Of a DNA stretch of 64,000 bases, positions 3,251 to 36,952 are shown one piece after another. The DNA is from an uncultured Bacteroidaceae bacterium (GTDB taxonomy: Bacteria; CAIWAD01). Position numbers and translations under genes: made by a program. The DNA lies in assembly GCA_964345075.1 (NCBI GenBank), contig CAYFPS010000007.1, forward strand, positions 50,214-114,213. Direction: 5' to 3'. Under the pieces are notes generated by a model that was not told where the DNA came from, did no database searches, and was given only the letters and a program-made list of their open reading frames with translations. Numbering within the stretch: the stretch's first letter is position 1; each line of letters opens with the position of its first letter.

Positions 3251-3290
3251 AAAAAGGGCCCCGCCATGGTGGGGCCCTTTTCTTGTTTTC
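3251..3290. terminator. Bidirectional intrinsic terminator between convergent rpmB and the AAA+ gene
   Basis: aaaaAGGGCCCCgccatggtGGGGCCCTtttctt: 8-bp GC stem, A-tract before and T-tract after. Confidence 0.8.
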
Positions 3291-3300
3291 ACTTGCGGCT

Positions 3301-5541
3301 CTATTTGGCCGCCCGCTGCTCCACCTGGAACTGAATCGCATCGCCATCAAGCTGCACGCGAATGTTCAGGGCATGACCTTCAGCAGCCAGAATCTCTTCA
3401 TTGACCCTTTCGGCCACTTGTTCTTCAAATCCCTTGTCGACCAGTTTGGCACTGGCAATCCGGCCGCTGGTCCTGTGTGCCAGCCACTCGGCAACCCCTT
3501 CATCCAGCTGAAGCTCGTGGCCCAGCCGTCCCAGCTTTTCCTTGAAGGCGGGCACAATGCGCTCCTGCAGGATTTCCAGAAGATCCGCTTCGGACAAGGG
3601 CTGGAAGATGACCAGCTTGTCCACATTGGAAAGCAGGCCGGGCGAGAAGTATTCACGCAGGGCTTCCAGACTGGCTCCAGAAGCGGCGTCTGCCCCTCCC
3701 TGCTGGAAACCGATGCTACTTTTGTGCTCCATGCCGATCAGGTCTGAGAGCAGCACGACGGTCATGTCCGCCACGGGCAGCTGCTGGCCGGAAGCATCAC
3801 GCAGCATGCCTTCTTCAAAGCCTTTGAGGAAATAGCTGAGCACCTCGCCAGCGGCAAATTCGATGTTTTTCAGAATCAGCACGCGACGCGGATCACTTCG
3901 CAGGCGATCCAGCAGGCTGTGCGTGGGATAGCCTTCTTCCTGCCCGCCAAAACGGCCGACAATCCGCTGCAGGCTTTCCGCCTCCTGAAACTCGCTCAGC
4001 TCCACGAGAAAGGGTTCGTTGCCGTAGACAAGCCGGGAGAGTTCGGTGGCAAACAGCTGCTTGCCAACTCCCGATGGGCCGGCAAAGAGGAAAACACCGT
4101 CGGGACGCTCGGGATTCAGGTCCAGATCGCTCTTCATGAAGCGGATTGTGCGGCAAACCTCGGCAATGGCATTGTCCTGACCGATGATGCGCGCCTGCAG
4201 CGCCTCCTCCAGATGCTGCAGCTTCTCCTTGCGATCCGGAAAACGATCGTCACGCTTGCCCGTGATCCTGGCCAGCGCGGTGCGCAAAACGGACTCCCAG
4301 CTGGGCGGACAGCTACCCTCTTCCAGCGCCAGAATGGAAAGAGCCACATCCAGCAGGATCAGCGCCTTCTTGGGAAACTGCATGCCGCGAATGTGCTCGT
4401 CGGCCATTTCCACCACCTGCTCAAGCTGCGATTCGGATAGCTCGACGCCGTACTGCTCTTCAAAGCGCTCCTTGACGGTAGCGAGAATCTGCACAGCCTC
4501 GCCCCGGCCCAGCGATTTGATGTAGAGCGGACTCATCCACTCTTCAAATTGTGGATTGCCCTTGTAGACGCGATTGTAGAAGTCCACATCGGCCAGCAGC
4601 ACAAAGTGCAGCTTCTTCAGTTTGAGCATGCCCAGCAGGCGCTGCAAAAATTCCTGCAACATGGCATTGCCGCTGCCCAGCAGGTGCTGAATGCCATCGA
4701 CCACCATGATGATTTCCGTGTGTTGCTCGAGAAATCCCTGCAGCATGGCGAAGCGCTTGGCAAGATCCTGCGAACTCTGGAGATCACGCAGGAAGACTTC
4801 ATGATCGAATTCGAAAAAGCGTTTGCCGGCAAAGATCTGCGGGACCCTGCCCGCTGCCGTGTCCTCAATCAGTCGGCGCAAAACCGTGCTCTTGCCGCTG
4901 CCCGGCAGGCCGTACATCAGCAGATTCTGGCGATAGCGCCTGACCAGGACTTCCATGGCCGAGCGGCAATATTCGGGGTAATTCAACAGCCCCTGCATCG
5001 GTTCCGAACCGAAGCGGTGATTCAGGTCCTGATCCTGAGAAAAGAGCGCGCGCAGAAAGTGCTGCTCGCCCTCGCCCTCGCGCTCCAGTTCAATCCCCAG
5101 CTTCTCCAGCGGTACAGGATAGAGCTGCTGCCAGTTGTAAAGCACCAGATGCAGAAAGTCGTCCGCGTCCAGTTCGTCTTCGTCGCGGTCGCGCTGCCAG
5201 CTCATCAGCAGCTGACGGATCAGGTCGTCGGGCGGGGGCGCCATCAGCTCGGCCTGCTCCAGCAGCGCTTTAAGCTCCGGACTCAGTTCGACCGGCTCTT
5301 CATCATCCTTTTCGCCAGCCTCCTGGGCCGCAACAGCGCTGGAGGCCTGGGTGAAATGCTTGATCAGGGCATCGCGGTGCTCGTCATTCTTGATCAGGCC
5401 TTCCCAGAATTCCTCCAGTCCAGATTCCGGATCGAGGGCGGCAATCATGTATTCGGGCAGGCCCCAGGTGCTGCGGGTCAGCTTCAGGGCGGTGGTGGCG
5501 GCAGACTGAAAGACGTGAATCAGGGCGGCAGATAACTTCAT
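3301..5541 (-). CDS. ClpA/Hsp100-like double AAA+ ATPase with degenerate catalytic motifs
   Basis: D1 Walker A GLPGSGKST; D2 Walker A-like GPSGVGKQ (Q at the S/T position); Walker B-like VVDG and ILKNIE lack the DE pair. Layout matches ClpA D1/D2. Confidence 0.7.
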   Translation of the reverse strand: MKLSAALIHVFQSAATTALKLTRSTWGLPEYMIAALDPESGLEEFWEGLIKNDEHRDALIKHFTQASSAVAAQEAGEKDDEEPVELSPELKALLEQAELMAPPPDDLIRQLLMSWQRDRDEDELDADDFLHLVLYNWQQLYPVPLEKLGIELEREGEGEQHFLRALFSQDQDLNHRFGSEPMQGLLNYPEYCRSAMEVLVRRYRQNLLMYGLPGSGKSTVLRRLIEDTAAGRVPQIFAGKRFFEFDHEVFLRDLQSSQDLAKRFAMLQGFLEQHTEIIMVVDGIQHLLGSGNAMLQEFLQRLLGMLKLKKLHFVLLADVDFYNRVYKGNPQFEEWMSPLYIKSLGRGEAVQILATVKERFEEQYGVELSESQLEQVVEMADEHIRGMQFPKKALILLDVALSILALEEGSCPPSWESVLRTALARITGKRDDRFPDRKEKLQHLEEALQARIIGQDNAIAEVCRTIRFMKSDLDLNPERPDGVFLFAGPSGVGKQLFATELSRLVYGNEPFLVELSEFQEAESLQRIVGRFGGQEEGYPTHSLLDRLRSDPRRVLILKNIEFAAGEVLSYFLKGFEEGMLRDASGQQLPVADMTVVLLSDLIGMEHKSSIGFQQGGADAASGASLEALREYFSPGLLSNVDKLVIFQPLSEADLLEILQERIVPAFKEKLGRLGHELQLDEGVAEWLAHRTSGRIASAKLVDKGFEEQVAERVNEEILAAEGHALNIRVQLDGDAIQFQVEQRAAK

Positions 5542-20850: not shown

Positions 20851-22842
20851 GTGCCTGATTCAGCCATGCCCGCTTTACACAAGATTTTCATCCTGCTGCT
20901 GCTTGCCAATACCGGGCTGGCCCGAGTGCTTGGCTTTCTGGCGCGGCTGGACAATGCCGAACTGGCCGGTAACTTCCGTCCGGAACTGGACGAGCTTGTC
21001 CTTTCGGGCAGTTTCAATGGCTGGCAGGCCTCGGAAGCATTCAGCTTGAGTGACAGCATTTGGCAGCTCCAGATGGAAGTTCCAGACGCGGAGGCCGAAT
21101 GGAAGCTGCGCATCTTGCGGGCCGAGGGCGGCAGTCTGTGGGAAGAAGGCATCGGCAATCGTCAGCTGCCCGCAGGTAGTAGCGGCTGGCTCTGGCCGGT
21201 CTGGTTCAACAATGACAGCCTCGAGCATCTGCCAGCCGTGGATTGTGACTGGCATGTGAGCATCGATCTCTCGCTGCTTGTCACACAGGGACGCTTTGAC
21301 CCGCTGGTGGAGCAGGTCGCGCTCCTGGGCAGCCGGGCGGAGCTTGGCTGGTGGCAGGCGCCGGGAGCCCTGATCGATTGCGGTACCGATGGCCGCGCTG
21401 AGGGCTGGTTAAGCCTTGCAGGACTTAGTGACTTTCCATTTGAGTACAAGGCCGTCATTCTCGATTCCCTTGCTCAGCCGCGGCTCTGGGAAGGCGGAGC
21501 AAACCGCAGCATGCAGCGCCGGGGCGATGAACCGGACCTGCTGCCACCTGGTGGGGATGGCAGGCCCGAGCTGGACAGTCTCAGCTGCTGGTTTGATCAC
21601 GCCCCTGAATGGCAGCCCGGTGAACTGCAAACAGGATCGGACCTGAGCTTTCTGGCGCGGCTGGAAGATCTGGGTACCGTGTATCACGATGCCAATGGCA
21701 ATGCGACAAGTCCGCTTGAGACCTTTCATCAAGCAGGTCAGCGCACAGTCCGTCTGCGCCTCTGGGTAGATCCTGAGGAGGCCTGGCACGGTCTTGATTC
21801 AACCCTGGCCATGGCGCACCGGGTGGTGGATGCCGGCTTCGACTGGATGCTGGACTTCCACTATTCAGACAGTTGGGCCGACCCCGCTCATCAGACAACA
21901 CCCCTGCGCTGGCAAAGCCTGGAGCTGGCGGCACTGGGTGACAGCCTGGAGGCCTACACTGGCCGCGTACTGGAACGCTGCTGTGCTGAAGGGATTTCCC
22001 CGGCGTGGGTACAGGTGGGAAACGAGATCGACCCGGGTATGCTCTGGCCGCTGGGCCGAGTGAATGGCGACTGGGACACGCCCCAGCAGTGGGATCAGCT
22101 GGCCTGGCTGCTCGGCCGCGCAATGGCAGGCACGGAGCTGACTGACCCAGCATGTCGTCCCCAGCGCTTGATCCATCTGGCCTCCTCCGGCAACACAGCC
22201 TTTGTCACACGCTACCTGGACGAGCTGAACAGTCGGGGCATAGTGCCAGAAGGAATCGGGCTCTCCTATTATCCCTGGTGGCACGGTTCGCTGGCTGATC
22301 TTGAAGGAACCCTGCGCGCATTAGCTGTATCACAATCTGCCGAGCTCATGATCGTGGAAAGCGCCTATCCCTGGACGACCGCCTGGCAGGATAACGGGAA
22401 CAACATTGTTGGTCCGGCAACCCTCCTGCCCGACCCCTTTCCGGCAAGTCCAGCGGGACAGTTGGCCTTCAGGCAGGCACTTGAAGCCCTGCTTGTATCA
22501 CAGGGTGCAAGCCGACTCATCTGGTGGGAACCAGCCTGGGTGGCTCAGCCCGGTCTGGATTGCGCATGGGAAAACCTGGCCTTTTTTGATTTCTCCCACC
22601 GGGCCCTGCCTGCGCTTCAGCTTCCCCTTGTGCTGGAGAGCCCGCAACTTGTGATACAGGCAAGAGGCAGTGGCCTGATCGAGCTACTCTGGGATGCGAT
22701 TCCGGGCGCCAGCAGCTACCGGATTGATGAGCAGGATGCTGCCGGATTGTGGCAGCCCATCGGTCTTGCAAACGACACAGGCCTGCTACTCCCCGCCGAA
22801 AACGGCATCAGACTCTTTCGCGTAACGGCCATCAGCAACTGA
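20851..22842 (+). CDS. Arabinogalactan endo-beta-1,4-galactanase (GH53) with N-terminal and C-terminal beta-sandwich domains
   Basis: VQVGNEIDPGM and IVESAYPW catalytic regions; SYYPWWHG; signal peptide. Confidence 0.7.
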   Translation: MPDSAMPALHKIFILLLLANTGLARVLGFLARLDNAELAGNFRPELDELVLSGSFNGWQASEAFSLSDSIWQLQMEVPDAEAEWKLRILRAEGGSLWEEGIGNRQLPAGSSGWLWPVWFNNDSLEHLPAVDCDWHVSIDLSLLVTQGRFDPLVEQVALLGSRAELGWWQAPGALIDCGTDGRAEGWLSLAGLSDFPFEYKAVILDSLAQPRLWEGGANRSMQRRGDEPDLLPPGGDGRPELDSLSCWFDHAPEWQPGELQTGSDLSFLARLEDLGTVYHDANGNATSPLETFHQAGQRTVRLRLWVDPEEAWHGLDSTLAMAHRVVDAGFDWMLDFHYSDSWADPAHQTTPLRWQSLELAALGDSLEAYTGRVLERCCAEGISPAWVQVGNEIDPGMLWPLGRVNGDWDTPQQWDQLAWLLGRAMAGTELTDPACRPQRLIHLASSGNTAFVTRYLDELNSRGIVPEGIGLSYYPWWHGSLADLEGTLRALAVSQSAELMIVESAYPWTTAWQDNGNNIVGPATLLPDPFPASPAGQLAFRQALEALLVSQGASRLIWWEPAWVAQPGLDCAWENLAFFDFSHRALPALQLPLVLESPQLVIQARGSGLIELLWDAIPGASSYRIDEQDAAGLWQPIGLANDTGLLLPAENGIRLFRVTAISN

Positions 22843-22871
22843 AGAAAAAGCTTGACTCAGGCCCGGAAACT

Positions 22872-22903
22872 CTGTTATCATTGTGATATCACCTTGATAA
22901 CAG
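22872..22903. promoter_or_regulatory. 32-bp near-perfect palindrome CTGTTATCA-tt-GTGATATCAC-ct-TGATAACAG, 15 nt upstream of the SPFH start
   Basis: 14 of 16 positions are symmetric. The centre GTGATATCAC is two overlapping copies of the recurrent GTGATAC motif. Confidence 0.6.
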
Positions 22904-22917
22904 ACAAGGGAAATCAA

Positions 22918-23787
22918 ATGGTCAAGGACAAGCTCCTCAAGGGTCAGAATGGCTACCTGCATCTGACCGTCTACCTGCTGCTTTCGCTGGGATTTATCTG
23001 GGGCATCTACCTGGGTGTTCGTGAGGCCAGTCCGCTCTGGACTCTTTCAGCCATTGGAGGGCTGGCTGTTTCGCTCTTCCTGATGGGCGGCCTCTTCATT
23101 GTCAATCCCAATGAGGCCCGCGTGCTCCAGCTCTTTGGCGATTACACAGGCACCATCACACGACCGGGCCTGCTCTGGGCCAATCCCTTCTACACAAAGC
23201 GCAAGGTTTCGCTTCGCGTGCGCAACTTCGAGACAGGCAAGGTCAAGGTGAACGACCTGACCGGCAATCCGGTGGAAATTGCTGCCGTTGTTGTCTGGCA
23301 AGTAGTTGATGGTGCTGAGGCTCTGTTTGAGGTGGACAACTTCGAGGATTATGTGCGTGTCCAGAGTGAGGCGGCCGTGCGCAATCTGGCCACCAATTAC
23401 CCCTACGATGCCCATGATGAATTCAGTCTCTCGCTCTCGCACAACACGGCAGAAGTCAGCACCCGACTGCAGGAAGAGCTGCAGGAGCGCCTGGACAAGG
23501 CCGGTGTCAATGTGAAGGAAGCGCGGATCAGTCACCTGGCTTACGCCCAGGAAATTGCTGCCGCCATGTTGCAGCGCCAGCAGGCCGCGGCAGTGGTCGC
23601 CGCGCGCACCCAGATTGTGGAAGGCGCGGTGGGAATGGTGGAAATGGCGCTGGACAGGCTAGGCGAAAAGCAGATTGTCGACCTGGACGAAGAACGCAAG
23701 GCCGCCATGGTCAGCAACCTGCTGGTTGTGCTCTGCAGCGACCGTCACACGCAGCCGGTGGTCAACACGGGAACACTTCATAACTAG
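22918..23787 (+). CDS. SPFH/band-7 (stomatin/flotillin-like) membrane protein
   Basis: N-terminal TM then SPFH core. AAGGGA RBS. Start trimmed to MVKDKLL. Track ORF 22852..23787. Confidence 0.8.
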
Positions 23788-23795
23788 GGCTGTGA

Positions 23796-23963
23796 ATGTG
23801 TCACAGAAAAAAAGGCTATCTCCTCCGTCTGAATCCGGATCTTCACAAGGCCCTTCAGGCCTGGGCGGAAGACGAATTCAGAAGCCTCAATGGTCACCTG
23901 GAATACCTGCTTAAAAAGGCCTTGAAGGATGCTGGCAGGTTACCCAAAAACAAAGGCTCCTGA
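23796..23963 (+). CDS. Arc/MetJ-type ribbon-helix-helix DNA-binding protein, 55 aa (MCHRKKGYLLRLNPDLHKALQAWAEDEFRSLNGHLEYLLKKALKDAGRLPKNKGS)
   Basis: Not in ORF track (<60 aa). YLLRLNPDLHKALQAWAEDEFRSLNGHLEYLL matches the Arc-like RHH pattern. 8 nt after the SPFH stop, 3 nt before the next gene. Start ATG sits inside CTGTGA-N5-TCACAG. Confidence 0.65.
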   Translation: MCHRKKGYLLRLNPDLHKALQAWAEDEFRSLNGHLEYLLKKALKDAGRLPKNKGS

Positions 23964-23966
23964 ACC

Positions 23967-24260
23967 ATGACAGGTAGCTTCTGGATTGTAATCAGCCTGC
24001 TGCTGCTGGCAATCGTCGTTGCCATGCTTCGAATAAGCGGCCGCATGCCGGCCAATATGGCCTTTCAATCACCCGGACGCACTCACAGACCAGCGGCCCT
24101 TATTCTTGCGGGTTTGCCTGCCGCGGGCATGATTGTCTTTGAGAAGTCCGGTGGCAAGGGCGGATCGGAATCGATTCTGGCCATGGTCGTGATACCTGCA
24201 GTGCTGGTGCTCGTGGGACTTGGCATGCTCTGGTGGCGCTGGAAGAAAAGCCAGGAATAG
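23967..24260 (+). CDS. Small membrane protein (2-3 TM), third gene of the SPFH operon
   Basis: Hydrophobic segments FWIVISLLLLAIVVAM and LAMVVIPAVLVLVGLGMLWW. Confidence 0.6.
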   Translation: MTGSFWIVISLLLLAIVVAMLRISGRMPANMAFQSPGRTHRPAALILAGLPAAGMIVFEKSGGKGGSESILAMVVIPAVLVLVGLGMLWWRWKKSQE

Positions 24261-34322: not shown

Positions 34323-36952
34323 GACTTCAGTCCATTTTTCGATACATGTATCACAACCAGCGTCAAGTCATCTACTTGCTCGTTGCCTTTTTCCCAGGCC
34401 CTGACTTCTTCATGAATCTCGGCCTCCAGCTCTTCGGCCGTACTGGCCTGACTGCCTTCCAGCAGTTGCCGCAGACGATCTTCACCGAATTCTTCTTCCT
34501 GTCCGTTTTGAGCCTCCGTCAGGCCGTCGGTGTAGAAGATCAGCCAGTCTCCGGGCACAAGCTCCAGGTCTTCGGCGTCGTAGCCCACTCCGGCAAACAT
34601 GCCGAGTGCCATGCCACCGCAATCCAGCGTGCGACAGGTTCCCGCACGCAGCAGTAGTGGTGGATTGTGTCCGGCGTTGGAATAGTGCAGGCGAAAGCCC
34701 TCTGTCGTCCGCTCCAGCTGCCCCTGCACAAAGGTTACAAAGAGCTCGTCAGCCGTTGTCGCAGCCAGGCGGTCATTCAGGCGCACATTGCTCTCGGCAC
34801 TGTCCAGGTCAAGCTCCAGCATGCTGCGCCAAGCGGCCTGAAGGTTGCTCATCAGTAGCGCGGCGGCCACGCCCTTGCCGGAGACATCACCCAGTGCCAG
34901 AAAAACCGAGTCATTACTCTGTGATACAAAATCATAGTAATCGCCGCCGGTTTCAAGCGCCATCCGGCAACCACCGGCAATCTGCAAGCCTGGTATGCAG
35001 GGAGGCGCAGCGGGCAACAAGCCCTGTTGGATGTTGCGCGCAATGGTCAGTTCACGCTCAAGCCGCTCTTTGACGGCCAGATCCCGCATATTATCACGAA
35101 TCCGCGAGCTCATGGCATTGAAGGACCGGGCCAGTCTGCCCAGCTCGTCTTCCGTGCGAATTGGCAGGACAAGGTCCAGATTGCCACGGGCAAGCTCCTC
35201 GGTGCCTGCACGCAATTCTTCCGTGCTGCGCGTGATACGCAGATTGATCCGCCAGGCAATCCAGAAGCCTATCAGCAACAGAGGAATAAGATTCAGCAGC
35301 AGCACCACCAGCACAACGACATAGTGGACGATCACCACACGCTCGCTGTTCAGCAGCACGGGAAGAATCTTGCCGGGAAGTGCCTCAGCCTGCGCCAGGA
35401 TCTGTTCGCTGGCATCCGCCAGAGGAAAATCCCTGTCGCCGATCCGCGACAGACCCAGCGCAAAAAAGCGGCGCGAGAAGGGATCGGAGGGAACAGGATA
35501 ACCGCGTGTGCGCCCCAGTTCCCGCGCGCTGTAGGTTCCAAAGCCAAAGGTGCTGGTCAGAAAGGCCGGCAAATCCGCACCGCTGATGGAAACCAGCCTG
35601 ACCTCACTGCCGACGGCCTCTGCAATTCGATCGACTGCCTCTGCATCCAGCGGAAAGAAGCCCAGCGCCAGCAATCGTTCCCGCTCCACCATGGCCACCT
35701 GCCAGGCCTTGCTTCCAACGCGTATCACGCCCGTTGAACTGCGAGTACGCCAGTCAGCTGGAAGCTCGAGTTGGTCCAGTGGAAAATCACCCGGCATGCG
35801 CCAGCTGGAAATCAGCCGCCGCCAGCTCTCGGTAGATGTGCTGTCGGCAGGATCCGCTTCCCGCTGCCTCAAATAAAGGCTGTAATGGCCGCGCCCGGCG
35901 TCGTGTTCGCTGCCCAGACTGCGAATCTGTTGTTCAAACAGTTGTTGGGCCTGTCTGTCCAGCGGGTTTGAATATGCCTGTGCGAAAAGGGAAGTAATCA
36001 GGCGACCACTCTCCATGCGCGTATCCAGACCTCGTGATACAAGGTGTGCGCGGTAAGTGCCCAGAACGACAAAGGCCGCGGTTCCAATCAGAATGCCAAG
36101 CAGCAGCAGCGGCAGCAGGCCGGTAAGGAGAGCGTTGGTGGCCAGCTTGGTGCGAATGCGACTTTCCATCAGCAGGCGGCGAACCAGCAGAAAGCTCAAC
36201 AGCAGCAGCAGGATGCTGGTAAAGGCCAGGGCCGGACCGTGGGAAGGCGCAAACCAGGCTTCCAGCTGGCGGGCAGCATCAACAGGGGCTGTATCGAAAG
36301 TGCTGGCCTGAACCTGGCTACCGAAATTCCTGACGAAGTTCAAAATGGCCCAGAATCCTTGAACCACAAAAAGCAGCCAGGCCAGTGGAATCCAGCGGTG
36401 CAGGCTGGCCACGCTTAACCAGCGCCAGCCGGCCAGAAGGGCCAGAGGAATCAGGAAATTGGAATTCCCGAAAAGCAGGCCGGTAATGGTTAGCAGGGCC
36501 ACCAGCCAGCGACCTATGCGCCTTCGCCAGCGGAGATCGGATTCATCACACCACCATTTGACAGCCTGATCCAGAATCAGACCAGAAAGCAGGAGCTGCA
36601 CCAGAAAGGCAGGCAGGAGCCAGCCGATGGCTCCGCTGGAGCTGGCCAGAAAGGTAAAGGGGTAAATCAGTCCGGAAGCCGCCAGCAGAAGCCAGGAGGC
36701 AGGCTCAAACTCAACCTGCAAGCGTCTGACCAGCAGCCAGGCGGCAGCAATCAGCAGGAGTCCGGCAGCGGCAGGCAGCTCCTCCGATCCCTGTGAATAG
36801 GCCAGCCATGCCCAGCTGCAACCGCCAAGGGCAAAGCTCAGGGGCCAGCGCCACTGACGATCCAGATGGCGCAGCCAGCTTCGAAGAATGCGTGGTTGTG
36901 TTGTGTTGCTCATGAAACCCGCGGGCGCTTCAGAAAGGCGCCGGAAGCACAT
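34319..36952 (-). CDS. Multi-pass membrane sensor with HAMP and PP2C (SpoIIE/RsbU-type) phosphatase domain
   Basis: More than 10 TM segments; HAMP; PP2C motif LALGDVSGKGVAAALLMSNL. Confidence 0.75.
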   Translation of the reverse strand: MCFRRLSEAPAGFMSNTTQPRILRSWLRHLDRQWRWPLSFALGGCSWAWLAYSQGSEELPAAAGLLLIAAAWLLVRRLQVEFEPASWLLLAASGLIYPFTFLASSSGAIGWLLPAFLVQLLLSGLILDQAVKWWCDESDLRWRRRIGRWLVALLTITGLLFGNSNFLIPLALLAGWRWLSVASLHRWIPLAWLLFVVQGFWAILNFVRNFGSQVQASTFDTAPVDAARQLEAWFAPSHGPALAFTSILLLLLSFLLVRRLLMESRIRTKLATNALLTGLLPLLLLGILIGTAAFVVLGTYRAHLVSRGLDTRMESGRLITSLFAQAYSNPLDRQAQQLFEQQIRSLGSEHDAGRGHYSLYLRQREADPADSTSTESWRRLISSWRMPGDFPLDQLELPADWRTRSSTGVIRVGSKAWQVAMVERERLLALGFFPLDAEAVDRIAEAVGSEVRLVSISGADLPAFLTSTFGFGTYSARELGRTRGYPVPSDPFSRRFFALGLSRIGDRDFPLADASEQILAQAEALPGKILPVLLNSERVVIVHYVVVLVVLLLNLIPLLLIGFWIAWRINLRITRSTEELRAGTEELARGNLDLVLPIRTEDELGRLARSFNAMSSRIRDNMRDLAVKERLERELTIARNIQQGLLPAAPPCIPGLQIAGGCRMALETGGDYYDFVSQSNDSVFLALGDVSGKGVAAALLMSNLQAAWRSMLELDLDSAESNVRLNDRLAATTADELFVTFVQGQLERTTEGFRLHYSNAGHNPPLLLRAGTCRTLDCGGMALGMFAGVGYDAEDLELVPGDWLIFYTDGLTEAQNGQEEEFGEDRLRQLLEGSQASTAEELEAEIHEEVRAWEKGNEQVDDLTLVVIHVSKNGLKS

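Follow-up and report, generated by a model that had tools for sequence, protein, structure and literature searches.

The window analyzed here is a 64,000-nucleotide stretch of DNA from an uncultured Bacteroidaceae bacterium, and our subject within it is a small plus-strand operon headed by a gene for an SPFH/Band 7 membrane protein. The SPFH gene (289 amino acids, positions 22918–23787) is followed by a gene for a 55-residue Arc-like ribbon-helix-helix (RHH) protein (23796–23963), our proposed autorepressor, whose ATG at 23796 lies 8 nucleotides past the SPFH stop codon. A third gene, encoding a small, lineage-specific membrane protein of 97 residues (23967–24260), opens 3 nucleotides past the RHH stop. 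Upstream of the SPFH gene lies a 34-bp palindromic operator (22871–22904, no strand assigned), defined from the sequence and an alignment of related loci, which contains three 8-bp boxes with an 11-bp period: box 1, TGTTATCA (22873–22880), box 2, TGATATCA (22884–22891), and box 3, TGATAACA (22895–22902).

Profile searches bear out the initial annotation, made from the sequence of the window alone, in its identification of the first two genes. The SPFH open reading frame (ORF) matches Pfam Band_7 (PF01145) over residues 60–231 with an E-value of 2.1e-25 and 90 bits against a cut-off of 23.6. An AlphaFold2 model based on 50 homologues predicts two hydrophobic helices, residues 13–35 and 39–60, at a predicted local distance difference test (pLDDT) score of about 92, together with a long helix at residues 211–250; the rest is poorly modeled, and the mean pLDDT is 55. 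The protein is organized as an N-terminal two-helix membrane hairpin, an SPFH domain, and a strongly conserved C-terminus, and the model contains both features expected of the SPFH family, a membrane anchor near the N-terminus and a helical oligomerization region toward the C-terminus. Homologues are abundant, with at least 8000 clusters in the protein database, nearly all of 288–293 residues. Mean column identity over 50 homologues is 71%, proteins from different phyla are about 60–70% identical, and the extreme C-terminus is almost invariant.

The 55-residue ORF is a real gene, with 96 homologues found, and a protein identical to its product is present in NCBI and ENA-derived collections. 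It matches the RHH region of Pfam HicB (21.9 bits against a cut-off of 21) and, weakly, RHH_5, and it carries the sequence signature of the fold: a beta-strand, a helix, an R-S-x-N turn, and a second helix. Alignment with the Arc repressor of phage P22 using hhalign gave a probability of 90% (E=1.5e-6) over the whole length, including the beta-strand arginine, and the family profile matches Arc, Mnt, and AmrZ chains in the PDB. Invariant positions of the family are K6, L10, R11, W23, R29, S30, N32, and G33, which include the Leu-Arg of the beta-strand and an R-S-x-N-G turn, while the tails that follow the core vary among homologues in both length and sequence. The Pfam Arc model PF03869 is absent from the matches of the 55-residue protein at E≤0.1, and a few homologues carry a precomputed match to it. 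No HicA match was found in the operon, and the HicB match of the small protein spans the generic RHH region alone. In PHROGs, the operon gave generic matches only, to "lipoprotein" for the SPFH protein and to "Arc-like repressor" (E=0.0014) for the RHH protein.

Database treatment of the small gene is uneven: it is labeled "Arc family DNA-binding protein", "HicB family antitoxin", or "hypothetical", or it is omitted. On the Bosea plasmid NZ_AP022849.1, for example, an RHH homologue (E=4.5e-18; positions 2157–2453 of our locus L090) lies behind the SPFH gene, yet the gene table of the record holds none. We also noted that the RHH gene of the window begins ATG TGT CAC AGA AAA AAA GGC (23796–23816), with a run of seven A, while its syntenic closest relative, L083 (around positions 3995–4015), has six A and starts from a GTG that lies in the alternative register of the same GTGTCACAG string. 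The difference in the run is therefore a homopolymer indel compensated by a shift of start codon.

The initial annotation had described a 32-bp palindrome ahead of the SPFH gene, and this palindrome, CTGTTATCAttGTGATATCACctTGATAACAG, is present at 22872–22903 with 14 of its 16 pairs symmetric; it extends by one position on each side to the 34 bp given above. Its distance from the SPFH start had been put at 15 nucleotides and is in fact 14, the ATG being at 22918. Since the window contains two 32-bp palindromes with at least 14 of 16 pairs, against 0.025 per window in Markov-simulated sequence, the operator palindrome is not a chance occurrence. The other one, AAAAAGGGCCCCGCCATGGTGGGGCCCTTTTC at 3251–3282, forms a terminator-like hairpin and has the look of a bidirectional intrinsic terminator.

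A promoter scan of the region places a −35 hexamer, TTGACT, at 22852–22857 on the plus strand, which is invariant in the relatives L083 and L084, and, after an 18-nucleotide spacer, a −10 hexamer, TATCAT, at 22876–22881, for 10 of 12 matches to the consensus. A TG two bases 5′ of the hexamer completes a predicted extended −10 element, TGtTATCAT (22873–22881, plus strand), that coincides with box 1. The operon is thus predicted to have a sigma-70-type promoter whose extended −10 element lies inside box 1, and box 2 would then lie over the predicted transcription start. A Shine-Dalgarno-like AAGGGA (22906–22911, plus strand), which we read from the sequence as a candidate ribosome-binding element, stands 6 nucleotides 5′ of the SPFH ATG. 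The arrangement recurs elsewhere: of 49 related loci in which a promoter-like match was found, 34 have a box that overlaps the −10 hexamer, and 26 of those 34 show the TGaTATCAT register. Because the −10 hexamer overlaps the boxes, a box may serve both as −10 element and as binding site, which is the classic geometry for repression by occlusion. We consider a role for the palindrome as an RNA hairpin unlikely, as transcription is predicted to start within it and conservation of the boxes is at the level of sequence, without compensatory changes; Rfam had no match at the operator or elsewhere in the operon.

To place the operon in a wider context, we compared it with SPFH relatives from a scan of one genome per species (GTDB), which yielded at least 584 loci, of which the best 80, with SPFH proteins 54–70% identical, were used. 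These 80 loci include Acidobacteriota, Gemmatimonadota, Gammaproteobacteria, Actinomycetota, Bacteroidota, Bacillota, Planctomycetota, Myxococcota, Chloroflexota, and Fibrobacterota, as well as one cyanobacterial and one Candidatus Eisenbacteria genome. In 79 of the 80, the SPFH gene has an RHH homologue downstream; in 75 the homologue comes directly behind, usually 10–100 nucleotides and at most about 350 nucleotides past the stop codon. Four loci (L020, L058, L076, and L078) have at least one long ORF between the two genes. The sole locus without an RHH gene, L079, is a Flavobacteriaceae contig that ends inside the two genes that precede RHH in its relatives L076 and L078. Pairwise identities of the SPFH and RHH proteins correlate (r=0.32), a value that none of 500 Mantel permutations reached.

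The loci with insertions have features of their own. The Flavobacteriaceae operon consists of SPFH, a 169-residue membrane protein, an alpha/beta hydrolase, and RHH (positions 3855–5781 in L076, 3861–5777 in L078, and 1610–2792 in L079, where the contig ends within the inserted genes). In the Saprospiraceae locus L058 the inserted gene (3890–4393) encodes a 167-residue membrane protein. A related alpha/beta hydrolase (Hydrolase_4, often with DUF3887) stands behind RHH in about 9 of 70 other loci; it is not a general companion and may be a recurrent accessory gene.

The initial annotation had proposed an autoregulated module of three genes. Autoregulation gains strong support from comparative genomics, as set out below, whereas the third gene does not belong to the conserved unit. 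The 97-residue hydrophobic protein has no family match in profile searches and no homologue in any of the 80 related loci; an equivalent exists in the syntenic closest relative alone, at 37% identity. The gene that follows RHH in related loci varies in size and lies on the minus strand in 38 cases and on the plus strand in 36. Because the 97-residue gene is confined to the window and this one relative and the downstream neighbors vary, we rejected a conserved third gene and take the conserved unit to be two genes. With a gap of 3 nucleotides, the third gene is probably co-transcribed with RHH while standing outside the conserved module. In the window the operon is flanked by a GH53 galactanase gene upstream and a convergent alpha-amylase gene downstream, and in related loci the cassette sits in variable contexts among mostly housekeeping genes; we rejected the idea that a defense-island or mobile-element setting is general.

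Conservation extends from the gene pair to the operator boxes. The best palindromes 5′ of the SPFH starts in related loci are variants of GATATCA-N3-TGATATC, and 75 of 77 loci have TGATATCA with at most one mismatch within the 120 nucleotides that precede the SPFH start. Both exceptions have an explanation: the start of L061 was miscalled, and the box is present after correction, while L069 has a box with two mismatches in a conserved context. Box density is 12.9 per kb upstream of SPFH starts and 0.2 per kb in the rest of the loci, a difference of about 65-fold, and the spacing of adjacent boxes is exactly 11 bp in 43 pairs out of 44. When 78 upstream regions are aligned, the central box is perfect in 54 and is accompanied by degenerate boxes at −11 and +11. 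The closest relative, L083, keeps the boxes but not the outer CTGT/ACAG ends of the 32-bp palindrome.

Genes and boxes are also lost together. SPFH genes that lack an RHH gene, namely those of the Listeria-like locus L088, the Enterococcus-like locus L213, and the distant Vibrio relative L089, lack the boxes as well, while more distant SPFH members from Bosea, Rhizobium, Qipengyuania, Prevotella, Parabacteroides, Acetoanaerobium, Bacillus thuringiensis, and Deinococcus have both. The comparison of operon and operator across related genomes that the initial annotation had recommended thus finds the two elements retained together, at the frequencies given above, and absent together. A caution attaches to the names of some of these records. 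L088 (OR846799.1) and L213 (OR846655.1) are labeled as Listeria and Enterococcus "phage" and L092 (NZ_CP151545.1) as a Pseudomonas aeruginosa "plasmid", but all three carry what appear to be chromosomal Firmicute genes (SPFH, ABC transporter, purine), so that the records may be mislabeled or contaminated; the SPFH copy of L092 is frameshifted.

We also ran the comparison in reverse, with 80 metagenome loci selected solely for an exact TGATATCA-N3-TGATATCA double box. An SPFH gene of the cassette's family lies directly behind the double box in 37 of these loci; RHH accompanies it in 31 of the 37, and the other 6 are truncated contigs. In six more loci a gene for a FitA-like RHH antitoxin (PF22513) starts beside the double box (L095, positions 3639–3910, and L146, L155, L153, L147, and L107), and Pfam confirmed a PIN toxin gene behind it in three of the six (L095, L155, and L147). 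One further double-box locus carries an Arc-like RHH gene. Apart from the fold, no relationship between the FitA-like and SPFH-linked RHH proteins can be detected (hhalign probability 2.6%), and since genes for both adjoin the double box, at least two unrelated RHH lineages are encoded beside TGATATCA. Among the same metagenome loci, L145 has four consecutive perfect TGATATCA boxes with an 11-bp period (2013–2053) on a 3.8-kb contig where no SPFH or RHH gene was detected.

We consider it likely, with good though not full confidence, that the SPFH and RHH genes form a self-repressing cassette, the RHH protein acting at the boxes as repressor of the SPFH-RHH operon that encodes it. The RHH protein is the best candidate for the box-binding factor because genes and boxes are lost together, because loci chosen for the box alone lead back to SPFH-RHH pairs, because other RHH genes stand at the same box, and because the protein has the features of DNA-binding RHH families. 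An almost invariant box accompanies an almost invariant RHH recognition strand. In the mechanism that we propose, the predicted promoter (TTGACT, 18 nucleotides, TGtTATCAT) would drive an mRNA for a membrane-anchored SPFH scaffold followed by the 55-residue RHH cistron, and one RHH dimer would bind each palindromic 8-bp TGATATCA box. The 11-bp spacing, approximately one helical turn, would set two or three dimers on the same face of the DNA, where the perfect central box probably nucleates binding and the weaker flanking boxes would be filled cooperatively. As the −10 element and the predicted start of transcription both lie under the boxes, occupancy of the boxes would block RNA polymerase. 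Because the putative repressor is the distal cistron of its own mRNA, the result would be a homeostatic loop that fixes SPFH dosage independently of host regulators, and such a loop fits the presence of the cassette in unrelated contexts and phyla. It would also fit a protein that builds large assemblies in the membrane and that may do harm when overproduced.

Several observations weigh against this interpretation or limit it. Binding and repression are inferred from sequence and co-occurrence, and part of the conservation of the boxes could reflect their role as extended −10 elements. The RHH protein is bare, with no sensor domain, and no inducing signal was identified. The AlphaFold2 model of the RHH monomer is a single long helix at residues 14–46 (pLDDT 77) rather than the beta-alpha-alpha arrangement; a monomer model tells little about an obligate dimer, and this one does not confirm the fold. 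Finally, about 26 of the 80 double-box metagenome loci have neither SPFH nor RHH nearby, so the box is not exclusive to the cassette; some of these double boxes may be chance occurrences and some may belong to other regulators.

The proposed architecture has close parallels among characterized RHH repressors. Arc binds as two dimers to operator subsites about one helical turn apart that overlap a promoter, and it represses its own operon. Like Arc and Mnt of phage P22, the RHH protein of the cassette is small (Arc has about 53 residues), consists entirely of the RHH fold, aligns over its whole length, and has the conserved beta-strand arginine. It differs in being only about 23% identical to Arc, with the Pfam Arc model unmatched, and the cassette differs in the sequence of the box, TGATATCA, in having up to three boxes, and in the partner, which is a chromosomal membrane scaffold rather than a set of phage genes. 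MetJ offers a second parallel, since it occupies arrays of a palindromic 8-bp box with one RHH dimer per box and fills degenerate boxes beside good ones cooperatively. Met boxes, however, abut with an 8-bp period whereas the cassette boxes are 11 bp apart, and MetJ requires the co-repressor S-adenosylmethionine and controls a regulon, while neither a ligand site nor a regulon is evident in the cassette.

In the FitA/FitB system the likeness extends to the DNA. Neisseria FitA recognizes TGCTATCA half-sites, which are very similar to TGATATCA, and FitA-like genes lie beside the exact TGATATCA-N3-TGATATCA arrangement. FitAB assembles on DNA through its RHH dimers (PMC3920265). The FitA protein has a conserved toxin-binding C-terminal half, while the SPFH-linked RHH protein has a short variable tail, and the partner of FitA is a PIN nuclease rather than an SPFH scaffold.

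On the membrane side, the SPFH-NfeD pairs (QmcA-YbbJ and FloA/FloT-NfeD) and HflK-HflC likewise combine a Band 7 domain, an N-terminal anchor, and a C-terminal helical region with a partner in a small conserved operon (PMC2636767); the partner in the cassette is a predicted DNA-binding protein, not NfeD or a second SPFH protein. Similarity of the SPFH protein to HflK and QmcA is marginal (E about 5e-4). As an HflK or HflC equivalog it failed, with 33.5 bits against a cut-off of 159 for TIGR01933 (hflK) and a single SPFH gene in the operon, and neither the 97-residue nor the 55-residue neighbor product matched NfeD at E≤0.1. In a survey of prokaryotic SPFH operons, Hinderhofer et al. (2009) reported no NfeD homologue for subfamilies SPFH3, 4, and 6–12 and described no RHH partner (PMC2636767).

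Among the alternatives, the one that best survives is a feedback sensor, in which an SPFH assembly facing the cytoplasm would govern how active or how stable the RHH protein is, through sequestration at the membrane or modulation of its degradation by FtsH, and the operon would respond to the state of the membrane or of proteostasis instead of merely keeping to a set point. We regard this as unlikely, but it has several points in its favor. The predicted N-terminal hairpin, with two helices and a lysine-rich N-terminus, would leave the SPFH domain in the cytoplasm, the compartment of the RHH protein, if the topology is as the model suggests. Conservation of the pair across phyla is far tighter than a plain repressor and its target would need, the disordered, charged tail of the RHH protein is of a type recognized by proteases, and the extreme C-terminus of the SPFH protein is nearly invariant. 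Other SPFH proteins, HflKC and QmcA, partner with FtsH (PMC8656257, PMC2636767). Yet nothing tested supports a contact between SPFH and RHH proteins, the RHH tails are unconserved in sequence and length although the SPFH protein is well conserved across phyla, clades without RHH retain the C-terminal SPFH motif, and some lineages have genes inserted between the two. A more specific version, a membrane-to-DNA signaling pair in which the amount of available RHH protein or its half-life would depend on the state of the SPFH cage (how it is assembled, how much cargo it carries, or how it controls a protease such as FtsH), appears to us slightly less probable still. If true, the pair would be a membrane-proteostasis sensor with its own transcriptional output, carried as a nearly universal, host-independent cassette, and this would be the first defined input-output function for an uncharacterized and very widespread SPFH subfamily.

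The initial annotation had also likened the operon to a toxin-antitoxin module, and in an explicit form of this idea the SPFH protein would be a membrane-damaging effector of a toxin-antitoxin-like or abortive-infection module, with the RHH protein as labile antitoxin and operon repressor. The likeness does not hold up well, and we judge such a module highly improbable. An effector-first gene order resembles that of hicAB and higBA, NCBI names some RHH homologues "HicB family antitoxin", the double-box operator is shared with the FitA-like RHH/PIN modules, and the cassette occurs in variable genomic contexts, including a Deinococcus plasmid on which the SPFH-RHH pair lies among toxin-antitoxin genes and an insertion sequence element. 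Against these resemblances, the SPFH protein belongs to the canonical Band 7 type and contains no toxin domain, and PADLOC found no defense-model match for any of the three operon proteins. Intact SPFH genes of the same family exist without RHH in the Listeria- and Enterococcus-like DNA of L088 and L213, which a toxin would not tolerate, and the RHH tail, which would be the neutralizing part, is unconserved. The neighbors are mostly housekeeping genes and not defense islands, and the very high conservation of the SPFH protein is unlike that of fast-evolving toxins.

That the boxes are promoter elements alone or sites of some other host factor, the RHH protein having its target elsewhere, is hardly credible, even though in many loci the box, in the form TGATATCAT, is at the same time a TG-extended −10 element and double boxes also occur without RHH nearby: a promoter needs one −10 element and not two or three palindromic copies in exact 11-bp phase, no host factor is common to more than 10 phyla while RHH travels with the boxes and is lost with them, and unrelated RHH antitoxin genes adjoin the same boxes.

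As for the novelty of the proposed cassette, autorepression by an RHH protein at phased boxes is a familiar type of mechanism, while the partner, the breadth of distribution, and the constancy of the operator from phylum to phylum seem not to have been described. We found no paper linking SPFH or stomatin proteins with an RHH partner or with a TGATATCA operator; our coverage of the literature was incomplete, and a prior description is possible. The presence of the SPFH-RHH-box arrangement in more than 10 phyla points to a widespread, putatively self-regulating cassette, in which an SPFH subfamily would carry its own tiny repressor gene together with an operator that hardly varies. It is rare for the sequence of an operator to be conserved over more than 10 phyla. 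This one offers a defined candidate protein-DNA pair for work in vitro and could provide a portable, host-independent autoregulated promoter, and deletion of the RHH gene could act as a genetic switch for over-expression of the SPFH protein in a search for what it does. Carriers that can be grown in culture include Bacillus thuringiensis, Parabacteroides, Prevotella, Pseudoalteromonas, Rhodanobacter, and Streptomyces. Surveys of toxin-antitoxin systems may be misled, since many of these small genes bear the "HicB family antitoxin" label or are not called.

Two further repeats had been connected with the operon. An inverted repeat, CTGTGA-N5-TCACAG (23790–23806, plus strand), does surround the RHH start codon, with the ATG in its loop, but the regulatory role suggested for it was rejected and we judge it fortuitous: it is one of 21 perfect 6-bp inverted repeats with a 5-nucleotide spacer in the window (119 with spacers of 3–8 nucleotides), and its left arm is not conserved in L083 or L084. 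The operator had moreover been described as built on an octamer that recurs in the genome. This octamer, GTGATACA, is absent from the operator, whose center is GTGATATCAC and shares the hexamer GTGATA alone with it, and the same TGATATCA boxes occur in phyla unrelated to the host genome; we therefore rejected the link. A second palindrome said to contain the motif, GATACATGTATC at 34341, is indeed present and overlaps a copy of the octamer, TGTATCAC, but it contains no TGATATCA box.

The recurrent octamer is a feature of the window in its own right. GTGATACA/TGTATCAC occurs in 55 copies over both strands, for example at 22651, 24278, and 34348, where an order-3 Markov model predicts about 1.9 (z about 34). 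For the 7-mer GTGATAC/GTATCAC the count is 68 against 6.2 expected, with 26 copies of GTGATAC and 42 of GTATCAC on the plus strand. The octamer is a genome-wide over-represented word, perhaps an uptake sequence or one related to architecture or methylation. Other octamers are over-represented in the window as well, namely the palindrome CGTATACG, with 12 copies against 0.3 expected, and AGACTGTC/GACAGTCT, with 17 against 1.5.

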